DNA of 64,000 nt from Gallionella sp. (GTDB lineage Bacteria > Pseudomonadota > Gammaproteobacteria > Burkholderiales > Gallionellaceae), in assembly GCA_035605585.1 (NCBI GenBank), contig DASTGP010000011.1, forward strand, positions 3,834 through 67,833. Direction: 5' to 3'. Positions 47,615 to 58,476 of this stretch are shown here, in pieces; positions within the stretch are counted from its first letter, which is position 1, and every line of letters starts with the position of its first letter. The notes below the pieces were generated by a model. It worked only from the letters and a program-made list of their open reading frames with translations, ran no database searches and was not told the origin of the DNA. Position numbers and translations under genes: made by a program.

Positions 47615-47705
<91 letters not shown>

Positions 47706-48003: not shown

Positions 48004-49437
48004 GTGGAAGCAACTCAAGCGACACCAGTAAAGTACGACATGGAAGTGGTTCGATGGTTCACCATCGCGGCCGCTATCTACGCTGTAGTAGGTACGCTCA
48101 TCGGTGTGTATATCGCATCGGAATTGGCGTTCCCGTTTTTAAACTTTGACATTCCGTATATCACCTTCGGGCGTCTGCGTCCGTTGCATACCAATGCGGT
48201 GATCTTTGCATTCGGCGGTTGTGCGTTGATGGCGACCGGTTTCTACATGGTGCAGCGCACCGGCGCGACCAAGCTGTGGAGCAATGGCTTGGCATGGTTC
48301 ACCTTCTGGGGTTGGAACCTGATCATCGTGCTGGCCGTGATCACTCTGCCGCTGGGTCTGACTTCCGGCAAGGAGTATGCGGAGCTGGAATGGCCAATCG
48401 ACATCCTGATCGCCGTTGTGTGGCTGTCCTTCGGTCTGAACCACATCATGACCGTGTCGATCCGCAAGACCTCGCACATCTATGTGTCCAACTGGTTCAC
48501 CATGGGCATGATCGTGATGATCACCTATCTGCATGTGGTTAACAGCTTGGCCATTCCGGTCAGCCTGACCAAGTCCTACTCCATCTACACCGGCGTGCAA
48601 GACGCGATGGTGCAATGGTGGTGGGGTCACAATGCGGTGGGTTTCTACCTGACTGGCGGCTTCCTGGGCATCATGTACTATTTCGTGCCTAAGCAAGTTG
48701 GCAAGCCCGTGTTCTCCTATCGTCTGTCTGTGTTGCACTTCTGGGCGCTGACCTTCGGTTACGTTTGGCTGGGTGCTCACCATCTGCAATACACTGCTCT
48801 GCCTGACTGGACTGGTTCCTTGGGTGCTGCAGTTTCCCTGGCGATGATCATTCCGTCCTGGGGTGGTGCGATGAACGGTATGATGACTCTGTCTGGTGCA
48901 TGGGACCGTCTGCGTACCGACTACATCCTGCGCTTCCTGGTTGTGGCTCTGGCGTTCTACGCGATGTCCACCTTCGAAGGTCCGGTGATGTCCATCAAGA
49001 CCGTTAACGCTCTGTCTCACTACACTGACTGGACTGTTGGTCACGTGCACTCCGGCGCATTGGGCTGGATGGCGATGGTTGCCTACGGTGCGATGTACCA
49101 CATGGTGAAGAAGCTGTGGGGCGTGGACAAGATGTACTCCGAAGGCCTGGTGAACGTTCACTTCTGGCTGGCTACCATCGGTACGGTGGTTTACGTCGTG
49201 GCGATGTGGGTGTCCGGCATTATGCAGGGTCTGATGTGGCGTGACTACGACGAGTACGGCACTCTGACCTATACCTTCGTTGAGTCTGTATCCGCAATGC
49301 ATCCGTACTACGCGATGCGCGCAATCGGCGGTGCAATCTTCAATCTGGGTACCTGGATCGCGCTGTACAACATCGTGATGACAGTGCGTACGGCAAGTGC
49401 TGTGCGTGCCGCTAACGCTGTTCCGGCTAACGCATAA
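48004..49437 (+). CDS. ccoN: cbb3-type cytochrome c oxidase subunit I
   Basis: [50 protein letters not shown]; GTG start with GGAGGAG. Confidence 0.98.
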
Positions 49438-49447
49438 GGAGTGAGAC

Positions 49448-50245
49448 ATGTCTGATCACGACAAAATCTATTCGACAAAATTTCAGGACAAGATCGAACG
49501 CAACACGCTCCTGATGTTTGTAATGACCGCTTTCGCCGTGGCGATCGGCGGTATCGTGGAAATCGTTCCGTTGTTCTACTTGCCCAATACCGCGATGTCC
49601 GGCGGCGACGGCACGTTCAACGGTACGGCCCACAAGGACCAGAACGGCAACGTCATTCCGATGGACAAGATCGTCTGGAATCCGGCTACTTCCGCGCACA
49701 AGACGCTGGAAGACTGGCAGCCCGGCGACGGCGTTCGTCCTTACAAGCCGCTGGAACTGGCAGGCCGTTACGTTTACATCCGCGAAGGCTGCTTCCTGTG
49801 CCACTCGCAGATGATTCGTCCGTTCCGCGACGAGAAGGATCGTTATGGTCACTACTCGATCGCAGAAGAGTCCATGTACGACCACACCTATCAGTGGGGC
49901 TCCAAGCGTACAGGCCCGGATCTGGCTCGTGTTGGCGGCAAGTACTCGGACGAGTGGCATCGCCGTCACCTGCGCTATCCGCGTCAAGTGGTGCCTGAGT
50001 CCGTCATGCCGAACTACTTCTGGCTGGAAAACAGTCCTGTGAGAGTCGCGGAAACGGTTCAGACCATGAAGGTTATGACCATGATGCCGTTCAACCCGGT
50101 TCCTAAGACCATCTACTCGGATGCCTACATCGACGGCGCAGCTGCGCAGTTGGAAGGCAAGACTGAAATGGATGCGTTGATTGCCTTCCTGCAAGGCTTG
50201 GGCAATCACGTCAAGTTTGAAGAGGGTGTGAATTACCGTGACTAA
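49448..50245 (+). CDS. ccoO: cbb3 oxidase subunit II (monoheme) with extra N-terminal periplasmic segment
   Basis: [33 protein letters not shown]. Confidence 0.96.
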
Positions 50246-50447
50246 GCTGCTCGGGTACCTTGGGATGGACGTGGAAGTCATGACCACGAACGATTGGCTG
50301 GGAGTGTTCTTTGCCCTGGTTTCGGCGATCGGCATGGTGGCGATCTATTTCATGGTATTCCGGCCAGCCAACAAGGAATCGTTCGAGTCCCAGGGCGTTC
50401 TCGCCCTGGATGACGAAGACCCTATCAATATGGGAGAAAAAAGATGA
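50238..50447 (+). CDS. ccoQ: cbb3 oxidase small subunit
   Basis: Single TM then [10 protein letters not shown]; lies between ccoO and ccoP. Confidence 0.85.
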
Positions 50448-51379
50448 GTGAAAAACACGATGTAGGTGGCGTGACAACGACAGGCCACGTGTGGGACGAC
50501 GATCTGGGGGATCTGACCAATCAACCACCCAAGTGGTGGATGCTGGGCCTGACCGCCAGTGCGATCTGGGTGGTGGTGTACTTCCTGTACTACCCGTCGA
50601 TTCCGGTTTCTAACGCAAACAGCTTCTTCAAGGGGCTCGGTGGCTGGACCGCGATCACTGAGATGGAAGCCGACAAGAGCGTGGTGGACAATGTCCGTAA
50701 GCAATATGAAGACAAGCTGAAGAACATGACTCCGGCCGCAATCTTGGCGGATAGCCAGTTGACCGAGTACGTTACTCGTTCCGGCAAGGTGTTGTTCGGT
50801 GACAACTGCGCGGCCTGTCACGGTCAGAATGGTGTGGGCACGACCGATAAGCAAGGTCTGTTCGCTCCTATCCTGAACGACGACGACTGGTTGTACGGTG
50901 GCAAGATCGACGACATCTACGCTTCCATCACTGGTGGACGTCAGGGCATGATGCCTGCACACAAGGACATCTTGTCCGCTGCCGAGATCGATACGCTGGC
51001 TAACGCAATTGCAGCAAGCAAGCCGACTTCCACGCCGTTGTTCGCGGAAAAGGGTTGTACCGCCTGTCACGGTCCGGATGGCAAGGGTATCCAGGCCATG
51101 GGTTCGGCTAATTTGACCGACAAGATCTGGCGTTTTGACGGCTCCGTCGAAGGTATCAAGTACACCATCGCCAACGGTGTGAACGCCGGCGTTCCCGGCA
51201 CCCGTGTGGCGGTGATGCCATCCTTCCAGGCTGCAGGCAAGCTGAGCGATGCGGAAATGAAGAAGCTGGCTGTCTACGTGTACAAGTTTGGCGGTGGCCA
51301 AGCTGAAGCACCGGCACCCGCTGCAACTGCAGAGGCAGCAGCCTCCGCAGTTGAAGGGGCCGCACCCGCAGCACAGTAA
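50444..51379 (+). CDS. ccoP: cbb3 oxidase subunit III (diheme)
   Basis: TGHVWDD, PPKWW, CAACH and CTACH, MMPA and VMPSF; Ala/Pro-rich tail. Confidence 0.96.
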   Translation: MSEKHDVGGVTTTGHVWDDDLGDLTNQPPKWWMLGLTASAIWVVVYFLYYPSIPVSNANSFFKGLGGWTAITEMEADKSVVDNVRKQYEDKLKNMTPAAILADSQLTEYVTRSGKVLFGDNCAACHGQNGVGTTDKQGLFAPILNDDDWLYGGKIDDIYASITGGRQGMMPAHKDILSAAEIDTLANAIAASKPTSTPLFAEKGCTACHGPDGKGIQAMGSANLTDKIWRFDGSVEGIKYTIANGVNAGVPGTRVAVMPSFQAAGKLSDAEMKKLAVYVYKFGGGQAEAPAPAATAEAAASAVEGAAPAAQ

Positions 51380-51389
51380 TTTGTCTCAA

Positions 51390-51415
51390 TCCGTGCGGAA
51401 GCGATTCCGCACGGA
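51390..51415 (+). other. Perfect 11-bp hairpin with GNRA loop and no U-tract
   Basis: TCCGTGCGGAA-GCGA-TTCCGCACGGA. Confidence 0.8.
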
Positions 51416-51440
51416 ACTTACCTACAAGGAGATATGAGAG

Positions 51441-51560
51441 ATGAATCATGATATGGTGTTTTACGGCGTGATCGTTTGCGTAGTGGGCGCTGCCGCCGTT
51501 ATGGGTTGGCTGTTCTACATGTTGTATCGGAACGCAGTCAAAGGTACTGACAGTCAGTAA
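51441..51560 (+). CDS. 39-aa single-TM small protein (below the ORF-track cutoff)
   Basis: AAGGAG at 51426-51431, then MNHDMVFYGVIVCVVGAAAVMGWLFYMLYRNAVKGTDSQ*; terminator directly after. Confidence 0.75.
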   Translation: MNHDMVFYGVIVCVVGAAAVMGWLFYMLYRNAVKGTDSQ

Positions 51561-51577
51561 CTGCAGGAACGTTTGGG

Positions 51578-51607
51578 AAGGAGGAGAGTCATATCTCCTC
51601 CTTTTTT
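51578..51607 (+). terminator. Rho-independent terminator ending the ccoNOQP-smORF unit
   Basis: AAGGAGGAGA-GTCATA-TCTCCTCCTT then TTTT. Confidence 0.82.
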
Positions 51608-51725
51608 CGTATTGTGAACAGGATGACTCCGGATTGATTCTGCCTGTGTCGCAGAGCCTATCGGGAGCCATCTTGAAATTTGGCGATAGACCAAATCAAC
51701 GCAGGGCATATTGAGGAGCGAGGAC

Positions 51726-53156
51726 GTGGACAAGGAAGTCGAGCATAAGGAAGTCGGTGCTGTCACCAGCATTTATCACGAGTTTGAGAATTGGAATGTC
51801 AACAAGGGCGACAAGACCATACATGCCAAGCGCATGCCGGGGTTCTTCCGCACCGTAAAGAACTATACGCAATTGGCCCTGTGGCTTCCGTTCTTCCTGC
51901 TGCCCTACATGCGCTGGAACGGCAAGCAGGCAATTTTGTTCGATATCCAGAATCGCCAGTTCCACTTCTTCAATCTGACGGTTTTGCCGCAGGACATCTG
52001 GATGTTGTCGCTGCTCCTGCTGGTGCTGGCAATGACCCTGTTTGCGGTCACTTCCGTCGCATCGCGAGTGTGGTGCGGCTATTTCTGCTTCCAGACCGCC
52101 TGGACCGACTGGTTTACCTGGATCGAGGACAAGATCGAGGGGAATCCGACGGCGCGACGCAGGCTGGAAGAGGCTCCGTGGGACTTCGACAAGATCAAGA
52201 AGAAGGTCTCCAAACACTTCATCTGGATGGTGATTGCCCTGTTCACCGGCATCAGCTTCTCCGTCTGGTTCGTGGATGCCTATGATTACTGGCGCGACCT
52301 GGTACATTTCCAGTTGCCGATGGTGGGCTGGGTGGTCATTACCATGTTCTTCCTGGGCACCTACATTCTGGCCGGGCTGCTGCGTGAGCAAACCTGTTTC
52401 TGGCTGTGCCCATACGCCCGTATCCAGGGGGTGATGTCTGACGCGCAGACGATCTTGCCGACCTACGATTTCAATCGAGGCGAACCGCGCGGCAAGTTGC
52501 GCCGGGGCGGCGAGGTCGTGGCACAACAAGGTGACTGTATCGACTGCTTCCAGTGCGTTCAGGTCTGCCCGACGGGAGTGGACATCCGCGAAGGCCAGCA
52601 ACTGGGCTGTATCACTTGCGGCCTGTGCATCGACGCCTGCGACTCCATCATGGACAAGATCGGCAAGCCGCATGGCCTGATTCGTTATGCCTCGCTGGAC
52701 GAACTGGAGGGCAAGCCGGCGAAGAAGATGTACCAGCATCCCCGCACGCTCGTATATATCGGCATTATCCTTCTGGCGTTGGCTGGCATCGTGTATGGCC
52801 TGACGCACCTCGGGTCGATGACCTTGAAGGTGATTCCGGAGCGCCAGCCGCTGTTCGTGACGCTGAGCGATGGCTCGATCCAGAACAAGTACGAATTCAA
52901 GGTGCTTAACAAGACCGACAAGGACGTGTTTGTGACAGTCGCGGCTGTAGGCGGCATCAAGGGGCAGCAAGTCATCGGGGCCGAGAAGCCGTTGCTGACC
53001 CATCATGGCCGCGGTACCTCGTTCACCATTTTCGTCAAGGCACCCGGCGAGAACATCAAGCAGGAAGTGACCCCATTGGAGTTCCGTGTGCAGTCCGTCG
53101 ATGATCCGATGATCGCGGCCGAGTATTCGACGAAATTCAATGGCCCCAAGCATTAA
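51726..53156 (+). CDS. ccoG: cbb3 accessory protein CcoG/FixG
   Basis: RVWCGYFCFQT, CFWLCPYARIQ, CIDCFQCVQVCP, CITCGLCIDAC; GTG 51726 after GAGG. Confidence 0.96.
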   Translation: MDKEVEHKEVGAVTSIYHEFENWNVNKGDKTIHAKRMPGFFRTVKNYTQLALWLPFFLLPYMRWNGKQAILFDIQNRQFHFFNLTVLPQDIWMLSLLLLVLAMTLFAVTSVASRVWCGYFCFQTAWTDWFTWIEDKIEGNPTARRRLEEAPWDFDKIKKKVSKHFIWMVIALFTGISFSVWFVDAYDYWRDLVHFQLPMVGWVVITMFFLGTYILAGLLREQTCFWLCPYARIQGVMSDAQTILPTYDFNRGEPRGKLRRGGEVVAQQGDCIDCFQCVQVCPTGVDIREGQQLGCITCGLCIDACDSIMDKIGKPHGLIRYASLDELEGKPAKKMYQHPRTLVYIGIILLALAGIVYGLTHLGSMTLKVIPERQPLFVTLSDGSIQNKYEFKVLNKTDKDVFVTVAAVGGIKGQQVIGAEKPLLTHHGRGTSFTIFVKAPGENIKQEVTPLEFRVQSVDDPMIAAEYSTKFNGPKH

Positions 53157-53181: not shown

Positions 53182-53697
53182 ATGATTTCACAGAGCAATA
53201 AGGCCGGTTTTCGAAATCCCTGGCTGATCGGCATGATAGGGCTGATCATAGTGGTGCTTGGGGTGAACATCACCTTCATCTGGTATTCGGCCAACGGCAG
53301 CCGCTCTTCGCTCGTCGATCAGGATTACAAGACCAAGGACCGCAAGGCGAATGAAGAGTTGTTGAAGGAGCTGCGCGAGCAGCAGGCGCTCGCTTGGCAG
53401 ACTTCCATCAAGAAGCCTTCATCGCTGGTCATGGGTACGCCCGCCACGTATGAAATCAGCGTGGTGGATCGCGACGGCAAGCCCGTGAGCGGAGCGATGT
53501 CGGTCGAGGCGTACCGTGCCTCGGATGCCAGCAAGGACTTCACCACCGAGTTCAAGGAAGTCTCTCCCGGCAACTATCAGGGGGCCATCAATTTTCCGTT
53601 GAAGGGTTACTGGGAGTTGCGCATCCATGTCAAAAGGGGGGAGGACGATTTCGGCGTGAATACCGACAGGTTCATGGTCGCCGAAACCGCACCGTAA
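53182..53697 (+). CDS. ccoH: FixH/CcoH-family protein
   Basis: RNPWLIGMIG, TM, LVDQDYK, YtkA-like LKGYWEL; between ccoG and ccoI. Confidence 0.85.
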   Translation: MISQSNKAGFRNPWLIGMIGLIIVVLGVNITFIWYSANGSRSSLVDQDYKTKDRKANEELLKELREQQALAWQTSIKKPSSLVMGTPATYEISVVDRDGKPVSGAMSVEAYRASDASKDFTTEFKEVSPGNYQGAINFPLKGYWELRIHVKRGEDDFGVNTDRFMVAETAP

Positions 53698-53704
53698 TCC
53701 TTCG

Positions 53705-56167
53705 ATGATGCAGTACCGCGAGCCCTCCGCCGGCGTTTGTTACCATTGCGGCTTGCCGATCGGTCCGGAGGCCGATTATCGCGCGGTGCTGGACGCGGCG
53801 GAGCGGCGTTTCTGCTGTTTCGGCTGTCAATCGGTTTCCACCGCCATCCATGAGGCGGGGCTGCAAGGCTACTACCAGCGCACTCCCGAGGGAGCGTTGC
53901 TCGCGCCGCCGCCCGAACCGCCGAAAGATGTAGAGATCTACGACTTCGACGAAGTGCAGCAGGAATTCACCACCTGCTCCGGCGATGTTCGCGACATCCA
54001 CTTGCTGGTTGAGGGCATCCACTGTGCGGCCTGCGTGTGGCTGATTGAACGCGGCTTGCAGCGCATCCCCGGCGTGATCTCCGCCAATGTCAACCTGGCC
54101 GCCAAGCGCCTGCACCTGCGCTGGGATAACAGCAAGAGCAAGCTTTCCGACCTGATACGCGCGCTTGCCAAGATCGGCTACGCAGCCGTCCCGTACGACC
54201 CGGAGAGTGCGGAGGGCTCGATCAAGAAGACCAACCGGGCCATGCTGTTCCGTCTGTTCTTCGCCGGCTTTGCCATGATGAACATGATGTGGATCTCCAT
54301 CGCGCTATACAGCGGCGCGAACCAGGACGAGTTCCGCGAGTTCTTCCACTGGATGGGGCTAGTGCTGGCCACGCCGACGCTGCTGTATTCCGGCTATCCC
54401 TTCTATCGCGGCGCCATCGGCGGGCTACGCGGCGGGCGTTTGACCATGGATATGCCCATTGCCATCGGCCTGTCCGTTACCTATTTGTACTCCCTGTATG
54501 TCACGGTCACCGGCAGCAAGACCGGGGAAGTGTATTTCGATACCGTTACCAACCTGACCTTCGTGATCCTGATTGGCCGTTATCTGGAGGGCATGTTCCG
54601 TCACCAGGCCGTGTCCGCCACCAAGCGCCTGATGGAGCTGCAACCGCGCGTCGCCATCGTGATGCGCGACGGGTTGGAGCAGATGACGCCGATACGGGGC
54701 GTGAAGCTGGGCGACCATGTCCTGATCAAGCCCGGACACAAGGTGCCGGTGGATGGCGTGGTGCTCGAAGGCCACAGCGCAGTGGACGAATCCATGCTGA
54801 GCGGCGAGTCGGTCCCGGTGAGCAAGGCGGCCGGCGCGCAGGTGTCTGCGGGCACGGTGAACACGACCGGCGCCCTGTTGGTCGAGGTGCGTTCGCTGTT
54901 GCAGGATACCACCCTGTCCAAGATCATCCGCCTGGTGGAGGAGGCGCAGTCCTCCAAGGCTCCGATCCAGCGGCTGGCCGATACCATCGTGCCGTGGTTC
55001 GTGCTGGTCACCCTGATCTGTGCTGCGTTGACCTTCTTCGTCTGGAATCAGCACGACTTCGAGGTTGCGCTGATGGCGGCGACTTCGGTGCTCATCATTA
55101 CATGCCCGTGTGCGCTGGGCATGGCGACGCCGATGTCCATTGCGGTGGCTTCCGGACTGGGGGCGAAACACGGCATCCTGGTCAAGAACGGGCTGGTGCT
55201 GGAGACGTTATCCAAGGTGACCCACTTCGTGTTCGACAAGACGGGGACGCTGACCGAGGGCAAGATGAGCGTCGCGCAGCTGCATGTCGCAGCCGGGAGC
55301 AACGAGCAAGAGGTGTTGAGCACTGCCGCTGCAGTGGAGCGCTACAGCGAACACAGCGTGGCAAAGGCCATCGTTGCGGAGGCGGATGCGCGGCAACTGG
55401 GTTATCGCGATATCGCCGTGGGTGGCTTCCATGCCACGGCCGGCTTGGGCGTGGAGGCGAGCGTTGCCGGGCAGGCACTGCTGTTAGGCAGCGCCGAATG
55501 GCTGGTCCGGCGCGGCATTGCCTTGGATGCCGAGCTGCAAGCCAGGGCGAATGAGCTGGAGGCGCAGGCGATGAGCTGCGTGCATGTTGCGCAAGGCGGG
55601 AAACATGTCGCCATTCTCGCGCTGGCCGACAAGTTGCGTTCCGATGCGCTGCAGCTGGTGAATGAATTGCGGGCGGAAGGCATCGCAATGACGCTGCTTT
55701 CCGGCGACCGCAGGCCGGTCGCCGAGGCCATTGCGCGACAACTGGGCGGCATGGATGTGATCGCCGAAGTGCTGCCGCAGGACAAGGATCAGGTGATCCA
55801 GAAATTGCAGCAGGCAGGTGCGGTGGTGGCGATGGTGGGAGACGGCATCAACGATGCGCCGGCGCTGATCCGTGCCGACGTCGGCATTGCGCTGGGGTCG
55901 GGCACGGACGTTTCAGTGGAAAGCGCCGACATCGTGCTGATGCACAACGAGTTGGACAAGGTGCGTCAGGCCGTACAGCTGTCGCGCCGCACCTTGCGTA
56001 CCATCAAGCAGAATATCGGGCTGTCTTTCGTGTATAACGCCATCATGGTGCCGCTGGCGATGATGGCCAAGGTCAGCCCGCTGGTGGCGGCGATCACCAT
56101 GCCGATCAGTTCGCTGGTGGTGATCGGCAATGCGGCGCGGATACGCACGCTGTTTAAGAACCAATAG
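53705..56167 (+). CDS. ccoI: Copper-translocating P1B ATPase CcoI/FixI
   Basis: CYHCG..CCFGC, HCAAC, SGES, CPC, DKTGTLT, GDGINDAP. Confidence 0.96.
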   Translation: MMQYREPSAGVCYHCGLPIGPEADYRAVLDAAERRFCCFGCQSVSTAIHEAGLQGYYQRTPEGALLAPPPEPPKDVEIYDFDEVQQEFTTCSGDVRDIHLLVEGIHCAACVWLIERGLQRIPGVISANVNLAAKRLHLRWDNSKSKLSDLIRALAKIGYAAVPYDPESAEGSIKKTNRAMLFRLFFAGFAMMNMMWISIALYSGANQDEFREFFHWMGLVLATPTLLYSGYPFYRGAIGGLRGGRLTMDMPIAIGLSVTYLYSLYVTVTGSKTGEVYFDTVTNLTFVILIGRYLEGMFRHQAVSATKRLMELQPRVAIVMRDGLEQMTPIRGVKLGDHVLIKPGHKVPVDGVVLEGHSAVDESMLSGESVPVSKAAGAQVSAGTVNTTGALLVEVRSLLQDTTLSKIIRLVEEAQSSKAPIQRLADTIVPWFVLVTLICAALTFFVWNQHDFEVALMAATSVLIITCPCALGMATPMSIAVASGLGAKHGILVKNGLVLETLSKVTHFVFDKTGTLTEGKMSVAQLHVAAGSNEQEVLSTAAAVERYSEHSVAKAIVAEADARQLGYRDIAVGGFHATAGLGVEASVAGQALLLGSAEWLVRRGIALDAELQARANELEAQAMSCVHVAQGGKHVAILALADKLRSDALQLVNELRAEGIAMTLLSGDRRPVAEAIARQLGGMDVIAEVLPQDKDQVIQKLQQAGAVVAMVGDGINDAPALIRADVGIALGSGTDVSVESADIVLMHNELDKVRQAVQLSRRTLRTIKQNIGLSFVYNAIMVPLAMMAKVSPLVAAITMPISSLVVIGNAARIRTLFKNQ

Positions 56168-58434: not shown

Positions 58435-58476
58435 TTGATATATATCAAACTAATATACTCGGTTAACTGTCATAGT
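58435..58476 (+). promoter_or_regulatory. Consensus FNR box between divergent fnr and hemN
   Basis: TTGAT-ATAT-ATCAA (58435-58448); TG-T-CATAGT at 58468-58476 fits -41.5 geometry for hemN. Confidence 0.85.

Follow-up and report, generated by a model that had tools for sequence, protein, structure and literature searches.

A conserved small gene between ccoP and ccoG in the Gallionellaceae encodes a putative single-helix partner of the cbb3 oxidase

The window analysed here, a stretch of 64,000 nucleotides from Gallionella sp., has a cbb3 oxidase locus in which a frame of 39 codons (ATG to TAA; product MNHDMVFYGVIVCVVGAAAVMGWLFYMLYRNAVKGTDSQ) lies between ccoP and ccoG. Comparison with related genomes indicates that this small open reading frame (ORF) is almost certainly a real coding gene under purifying selection. 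Its product is probably an accessory subunit of the cbb3 oxidase specific to this lineage, or a stabiliser of that enzyme, as proposed from genetic linkage. The protein family is new, unnamed and lineage-restricted and is without a family model, and it is of a kind already known, namely the single-helix partners of cbb3 oxidases.

The features of the locus are given in Table 1. Their order is ccoN-ccoO-ccoQ-ccoP, a hairpin, a ribosome-binding site (RBS), the small gene and a terminator. The stop codon of ccoP occupies positions 51377-51379, with a gap of 61 nt to the small gene, and ccoG begins approximately 100 nt past the terminator. A sequence-only reading of this DNA had described a 39-aa ORF at this place, an RBS at 9-nt spacing, and a slot after ccoP and before the terminator. 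Each of these details was upheld by the frame itself and by related loci, where an SD-like pentamer is found 5′ of the start codon in 35 cases out of 35. The description of the gene as operon-encoded in that reading was also supported, by its synteny, by its co-occurrence with ccoP and by the retention of the terminator after ccoP in genomes without the ORF.

Table 1. Positions in the window of the genes and signals of the cbb3 oxidase locus.
Feature	Position	Strand	Remarks
FNR/ANR-type box TTGATTTACGTCAA	47763..47776	+	One mismatch to TTGAT-N4-ATCAA; approximately 230 nt 5′ of ccoN
ccoN, cbb3 catalytic subunit	48004..49437	+	ORF; identity taken from neighbouring genes
ccoO (FixO)	49448..50245	+	PF02433, E-value 4.7e-70
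ccoQ	50238..50447	+	Weak FixQ match (PF05545, E-value 2.5e-4, below cut-off); orthologues kept in all related loci
ccoP (FixP), dihaem cytochrome c subunit	50444..51379	+	PF14715, PF13442, PF00034
Stem-loop HP1	51390..51415	+	Perfect 11-bp stem, loop GCGA, approximately -20 kcal/mol; between ccoP stop and RBS of small gene
Shine-Dalgarno sequence AAGGAG	51426..51431	+	Spacing of 9 nt to ATG of small gene; read from sequence
Small gene, 39-aa single-pass membrane protein	51441..51560	+	ORF, homologue searches, selection tests, AlphaFold; N-out/C-in predicted
Intrinsic terminator GGGAAGGAGGAGA-GTCATA-TCTCCTCC-TTTTTT	51575..51607	+	12-bp GC-rich stem and T6; 14 nt after stop of small gene
ccoG (FixG), opens the ccoGHIS assembly cluster	51711..53156	+	PF13746, PF11614
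ccoH (FixH)	53182..53697	+	PF05751, E-value 5e-21
ccoI, inferred copper-exporting P-type ATPase	53705..56167	+	820-aa ORF; CPC and DKTGT motifs by eye; position after ccoH

The frame of the small gene is the sole frame consistently open among 35 related loci. The 117-nt test segment is free of stop codons in 32 of these, the remaining three being 38-aa versions. The default ORF listing has a cut-off of 60 aa, under which the small ORF falls. On the opposite strand, an antisense ORF of 171 aa (51156-51671, minus strand) overlaps the end of ccoP, the small gene and the terminator, and it may explain why the small gene is hidden in a simple ORF track. This antisense ORF was itself considered as a gene and rejected as a GC-driven shadow frame, as it spans the terminator and the antisense frames have stops in relatives.

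A six-frame search of 40 relatives gave matches at the equivalent place in eight further genomes of the genus, and nine sequences made up the profile used for wider searches. With this profile, 189 clusters were retrieved from a collection of 5.8 billion proteins, none of them possessing a Pfam domain. When 1.84 billion representative proteins were searched exhaustively by profile, only 24 clusters came up, uniform in size and pattern. Family members are 38-40 aa in length throughout. Residues M1 and V6 are invariant, and conservation at D4, W8, I12, G16, N31, A32 and K34 is 90% or higher. Two long, unrelated proteins present in the same 90% clusters (P0147 and P0166), one of 618 aa and NADH-dehydrogenase-like, the other of 507 aa and low-complexity, are clustering artefacts and not fusions.

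For the selection tests, 35 orthologues were compared over their first 32 codons. The mean pS was 0.76 against a pN of 0.29, and the median dN/dS was 0.18 for 118 unsaturated pairs (0.1 < dS < 1.5), synonymous sites being near saturation among the orthologues. Entropy at codon positions one, two and three was 0.77, 0.65 and 1.40 respectively, the third being approximately twice that of the first two. Conservation and dN/dS in the ccoP-ccoG spacers had been proposed in the sequence-only reading as a check on the ORF, and it is indeed conserved in these spacers with the low median ratio given above.

Within a sample of 201 genomes of the family, the small gene was identified in 115, all of which (115/115) have an orthologous ccoP, and in none of the 75 genomes without one. 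Orthologous ccoP is present in 126 of the 201 genomes, with a clear match to the small gene in 115 of the 126, and genera lacking a cbb3 oxidase lack the small gene. Its position is equally constant. In the genus and family samples, the gene is flanked by ccoP and ccoG in each of the 36 loci retrieved, and the order ccoP-small gene-ccoG was found in 53 of 53 named loci that a pattern scan across 185,579 species brought up. The distance from ccoP to the small gene is 60-120 nt across loci and that from the small gene to ccoG is 100-900 nt. Members are found in Gallionella capsiferriformans ES-2, Sideroxyarcus emersonii, Ferrigenium straubiae KS, Sideroxydans and many metagenome-assembled genomes assigned to Gallionellaceae or 'Nitrosomonadales', while no real match came from approximately 390 genomes outside the family, which represent some 60 families of the same order. 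As far as these genome searches reach, the small-gene family does not extend beyond Gallionellaceae, where it occurs in Gallionella, Sideroxydans, Sideroxyarcus and Ferrigenium.

The 11 ccoP-positive exceptions (L049-L051 and L053-L060; genomes G054, G019, G014, G065, G085, G158, G163, G196, G205, G222 and G224) were inspected. One (G163) has a divergent syntenic copy and one a frameshifted remnant in which '...LAYRSATK' is still legible. Another has a degenerate spacer, seven have clean deletions that leave the terminator directly after ccoP, and in the last the deletion has taken the terminator too. The gene is lost or broken in about 10 of the 126 genomes that carry this operon; it is thus dispensable, the oxidase working without the small protein, and its repeated loss marks it as accessory and not core. 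The same terminator standing directly after ccoP in genomes with the ORF deleted places the small gene inside the ccoNOQP unit. Several losers of the same genus have in common a distinct region upstream of ccoG (GGTTACAATG...CCTATTGATTTTG). The same-genus losers may be one clade, with few loss events.

Dispensability in some lineages is what could be expected of an unrelated membrane peptide (a stress peptide, toxin-like peptide or transporter modulator) hitch-hiking in the ccoP-ccoG spacer, and hydrophobic peptides of small size abound, frequently with unrelated functions. It is, nevertheless, very doubtful that the small gene is of this type, as it is never found apart from ccoP (115 genomes, 89 loci), is absent from all genomes without this operon, has no visible antisense RNA or antitoxin-like partner, and occurs as a single copy per genome. 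Judging by its distribution, the gene is ancestral to its operon type in Gallionellaceae, selection keeping it in most lineages, and among the operons compared it is tied to one operon lineage only. Other types of ccoP occur in the family. A second, distant type (approximately 38% identity), found in L052/G048 and six other genomes of genus g25, has ccoG approximately 5 nt on and no small gene, and a further type of 50-57% identity is likewise without it.

RNA elements flank the small gene on both sides. The upstream element HP1, which the sequence-only reading had missed, has no U-tract after its stem in the window. HP1-like uninterrupted hairpins of at least 8 bp (8-12 bp, GC-rich), ending 19-33 nt before the ATG, were identified in 73 of 88 related loci (survey loci L002-L042 and L061-L113). 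Their arms have 45 distinct sequences among related loci, the structure thus being kept while the sequence drifts, and compensatory A-U to G-C changes are present in nine sequences. A T-run follows the hairpin in 18 of the 73 loci, mostly with Gallionella-type sequences, where it resembles a weak terminator, which is not the case in the window. In such loci the expression of the small gene could consequently be uncoupled from that of ccoP or lie below it. It may be speculated that HP1 sets how much small protein is made relative to CcoP, or that it shields the upstream mRNA.

The terminator downstream was missed by a simple consensus scanner because its stem runs into the T-run. It is conserved in related loci and, in genomes with the small gene deleted, is retained immediately 3′ of ccoP, and the distance from the small-gene stop to its stem is 7-21 nt in 35 loci of the genus and family samples. 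An Rfam search of positions 51300-51760 gave no match. The arms of this terminator are a perfect Shine-Dalgarno sequence (AAGGAGGAG) and its complement (CTCCTCCTT), which resembles the 16S anti-SD. The sequence of these arms, besides their structure, is conserved across the family, and this is the single such site in the window.

An ORF with its stop codon so close ahead of a terminator stem, with conserved RNA hairpins on both sides and with conserved SD and anti-SD-like sequence in the terminator arms, might act in cis, its translation modulating termination or read-through into ccoGHIS or stabilising the 3′ end of the ccoNOQP mRNA, with the peptide being incidental. This is regarded as highly improbable, given that amino acids are conserved along the helix and tail at a dN/dS of 0.18, which is unexpected for a spacer-type leader, and that the terminator is unchanged in genomes without the ORF, which indicates that it is independent of the ORF.

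The product of the small gene has one hydrophobic segment (residues 6-28, mean Kyte-Doolittle value 2.17), and AlphaFold modelling with the family alignment gave a single continuous helix of residues 3-37 with a pLDDT of 87. The family-average net charge is -0.9 for the N-terminus (first five residues) and +2.6 for the C-terminal tail, in which the window protein has R30 and K34. Its acidic N-terminus and basic tail lead, by the positive-inside rule, to a predicted N-out/C-in topology. The single transmembrane helix with a basic C-terminal side noticed in the sequence-only reading was thus borne out in prediction by the hydropathy, the modelled helix and the tail charge. With regard to the N-terminus, residue 3 is His in 106 of 129 members and Gln in 23 of 129 (approximately 18%), while residue 2 varies between types that retain and types that remove Met. 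An N-terminal metal site at His3 of ATCUN-like character was considered and rejected as unlikely, given the Gln3 members and the variable residue 2. The small protein also has no Cys and no Met-rich motif. Its calculated mass, for the formylated form of the window sequence, is 4383.1 Da.

Searches of Pfam and NCBIfam with the window protein and 63 members gave sub-threshold noise only (MerF, DUF7550, the FixH N-terminal helix and small_EYxxD), and no chain was matched in a PDB profile search at E-values up to 10. A literature search found no paper on the small gene, none citing its accessions, and no transcriptome or proteome table naming it. The transcriptome supplement for Sideroxydans lithotrophicus ES-1 has no cco entries, and the Ferrigenium preprint reports ccoNOQP only, with the small gene not listed. 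The earlier suggestion that the protein was possibly undescribed thus holds for family models, structures and papers. It does not hold for annotation, as WP_013292252.1 of Gallionella capsiferriformans ES-2 and BCK86551.1 of Sideroxyarcus emersonii are already annotated as 'hypothetical protein', and the exact MNHDMVFYGVIVCVVGAAAVMGWLFYMLYRNAVKGTDSQ protein has already been called by gene callers on a public contig.

The sequence-only reading had cited CcoM as a precedent for a separately encoded single-helix subunit of a cbb3 oxidase, and the published description agrees with this (PMC4742706). CcoM (PstZoBell_05036; printed sequence MFVDNVVLAGVVTVGLMVAFLAGFGYFIWRDAHKKS) of the Pseudomonas stutzeri cbb3-1 oxidase has 36 aa, a transmembrane segment at approximately residues 7-29, an N-out/C-in topology and a basic C-terminal tail (PMC4742706). 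It is non-essential, stabilising the complex while activity is unaffected, and its gene, found in Pseudomonas only, is remote from the cco operons and has its own ANR promoter (PMC4742706). Like CcoM, the small protein (39 aa) has one helix, with an N-out/C-in topology and basic tail predicted for it, and both genes are non-essential, the small gene being lost in some lineages. However, ccoM lies outside the cco operons of Pseudomonas, whereas the small gene lies inside the operon (89 loci) of Gallionellaceae, alongside that for CcoQ.

When the two proteins are set ungapped from residue 1, they have M1, D4, V6, Y26, R30, A32 and K34 in common, with W29/Y29 and D31/N31 being similar, and residues 29-34 read W-R-D-A-H-K in CcoM and Y-R-N-A-V-K in the small protein. 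The family profile scored 7.0 bits against the single CcoM sequence, a value equalled by 350 of 5000 block shuffles (7%), while hhalign of the family against that sequence gave a probability of 27% (P 6.6e-4) over 14 columns. The in-register score has a p of approximately 0.02, which is post hoc and to which the transmembrane segment adds no signal. The small protein appears CcoM-like in architecture, with homology to CcoM not being demonstrable.

CcoQ/FixQ (PF05545) also resembles the small protein in being small, single-pass and encoded in the same operon, and a juxtamembrane F-R-P-A-N-K in the local CcoQ can be likened to Y-R-N-A-x-K in the family. Alignment of the family with the local CcoQ by hhalign covered 21 columns (the second half of the helix plus the motif) with a probability of 32% and P of 5e-4, the score being equalled by 7 of 200 block shuffles (3.5%). 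PF05545 itself gave no match with the window protein or 63 members at E-values up to 1, nor with 10 members at E-values up to 10. The CcoQ encoded here has 69 aa, and its 17-residue N-terminal and 23-residue C-terminal extensions are absent from the small protein. With respect to paralogy, the operon already carries a CcoQ besides the small gene.

An aromatic-Arg-x-Ala-x-Lys pattern is present at the cytoplasmic end of all three proteins, at residues 41-46 of CcoQ (window positions 50358-50375), 29-34 of the small protein and 29-34 of CcoM. It could represent a docking motif, common ancestry or the usual aromatic-plus-basic membrane interface. A bolder reading, which we think unlikely, is that the small protein would be an operon-encoded counterpart of CcoM, possibly a very distant relative of it, occupying the same groove of CcoN, with the motif as a docking signature in CcoQ, CcoM and the family. 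If true, a 'fifth helix' would be a recurrent and overlooked feature of cbb3 oxidases, among them the enzyme that serves neutrophilic iron oxidisers as terminal oxidase.

In Campylobacter jejuni, CcoX (Cj1486, DUF4006) and CcoY (Cj1485, 33 aa) are single-helix proteins encoded just downstream of ccoP, deletion of ccoX abolishing oxidase activity and that of ccoY lowering it (PMC8267372). They offer the best positional precedent, as their genes, like the small gene, stand right behind ccoP and ahead of ccoH, an assembly gene. However, they belong to another phylum and have another set of genes downstream, and CcoY is likened to the small protein by position and size only. DUF4006 (PF13179) did not appear in the Pfam output for the window protein and gave no match in 10 members at E-values up to 10, and it was not among the 25 most-matched families for 63 members at E-values up to 1. 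Outside the cbb3 oxidases, CydX of cytochrome bd, subunit IIa of the ba3 oxidase and subunit IV of the aa3 oxidase are single helices that are encoded with or near the oxidase genes and aid assembly or stability. These follow the same general principle, but are from different oxidase families and have no sequence relation to the small protein.

From the linkage described, it is fairly likely that the product of the small gene is a genuine protein functioning together with the cbb3 oxidase, as either a subunit or an assembly helper. Genetic linkage by itself cannot tell these two apart. As the putative fifth cistron of a low-oxygen ccoNOQP operon, the small gene would be co-transcribed from the FNR-type promoter and translated into a single-pass protein of the inner membrane. 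Its acidic N-terminus (M-x-H/Q-D) would face the periplasm and its basic tail (Y-R-N-A-x-K...) the cytoplasm. The helix could then pack against the membrane part of the oxidase, at CcoN and/or CcoP, and by analogy with CcoM, CcoQ, CcoX and CcoY its role would be non-catalytic, as an aid to assembly or a stabiliser of the complex. The narrower claim that it is a stoichiometric subunit of the oxidase is given slightly less than an even chance.

A transient assembly helper, as distinct from a resident subunit, would work with CcoG, CcoH, CcoI and CcoS, for instance in the handover of CcoN/CcoP to CcoH or in copper insertion. Such a role would fit with the slot of the gene, which in all 89 loci has the structural genes on one side and ccoGHIS on the other, and with the conserved acidic residue and usual His at the periplasmic end, and C. 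jejuni proteins encoded in this slot (CcoX, CcoY and CcoZ) affect activity without being known subunits (PMC8267372). However, a strong terminator and 100-900 nt separate the small gene from ccoG, against 60-120 nt from ccoP. The replacement of His3 by Gln in approximately 18% of members speaks against a metal ligand, and the protein is devoid of Cys and Met-rich motifs. Overall, a purely transient helper appears a rather improbable identity for the small protein, and an accessory subunit or stabiliser is the preferred reading.

Microaerophilic iron oxidisers use the cbb3 oxidase as the terminal acceptor enzyme for electrons derived from Fe(II). In the literature on Gallionellaceae, the genes of this oxidase are presented as a 'classical ccoNOQP' operon. 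The comparison made here shows that most Gallionellaceae carry a conserved, uncharacterised fifth gene within it. The small gene is a target for annotation by means of a new family model, and lineages that have lost it naturally provide ready comparisons. The question of whether only Pseudomonas truly has CcoM-like helices is likewise affected. The claim made here is a modest one, small oxidase subunits being a familiar theme and the role of the small gene putative.

Upstream of ccoN, the FNR/ANR-type box likely places the whole cco unit under low-oxygen control, although sites with such a match number three in the window against 1.2 expected, making this one weak when taken alone. Translation of ccoG probably begins at the GTG at 51726, the mechanically assigned TTG at 51711 being too early, since relatives start at the equivalent GTG and GAGGAG lies ahead of it. 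Elsewhere in the window a perfect FNR-type box (TTGATATATATCAA) is present at 58435-58448, and a tRNA-Ser(CGA) gene (47615-47705) is found shortly before the promoter region of the cco genes.
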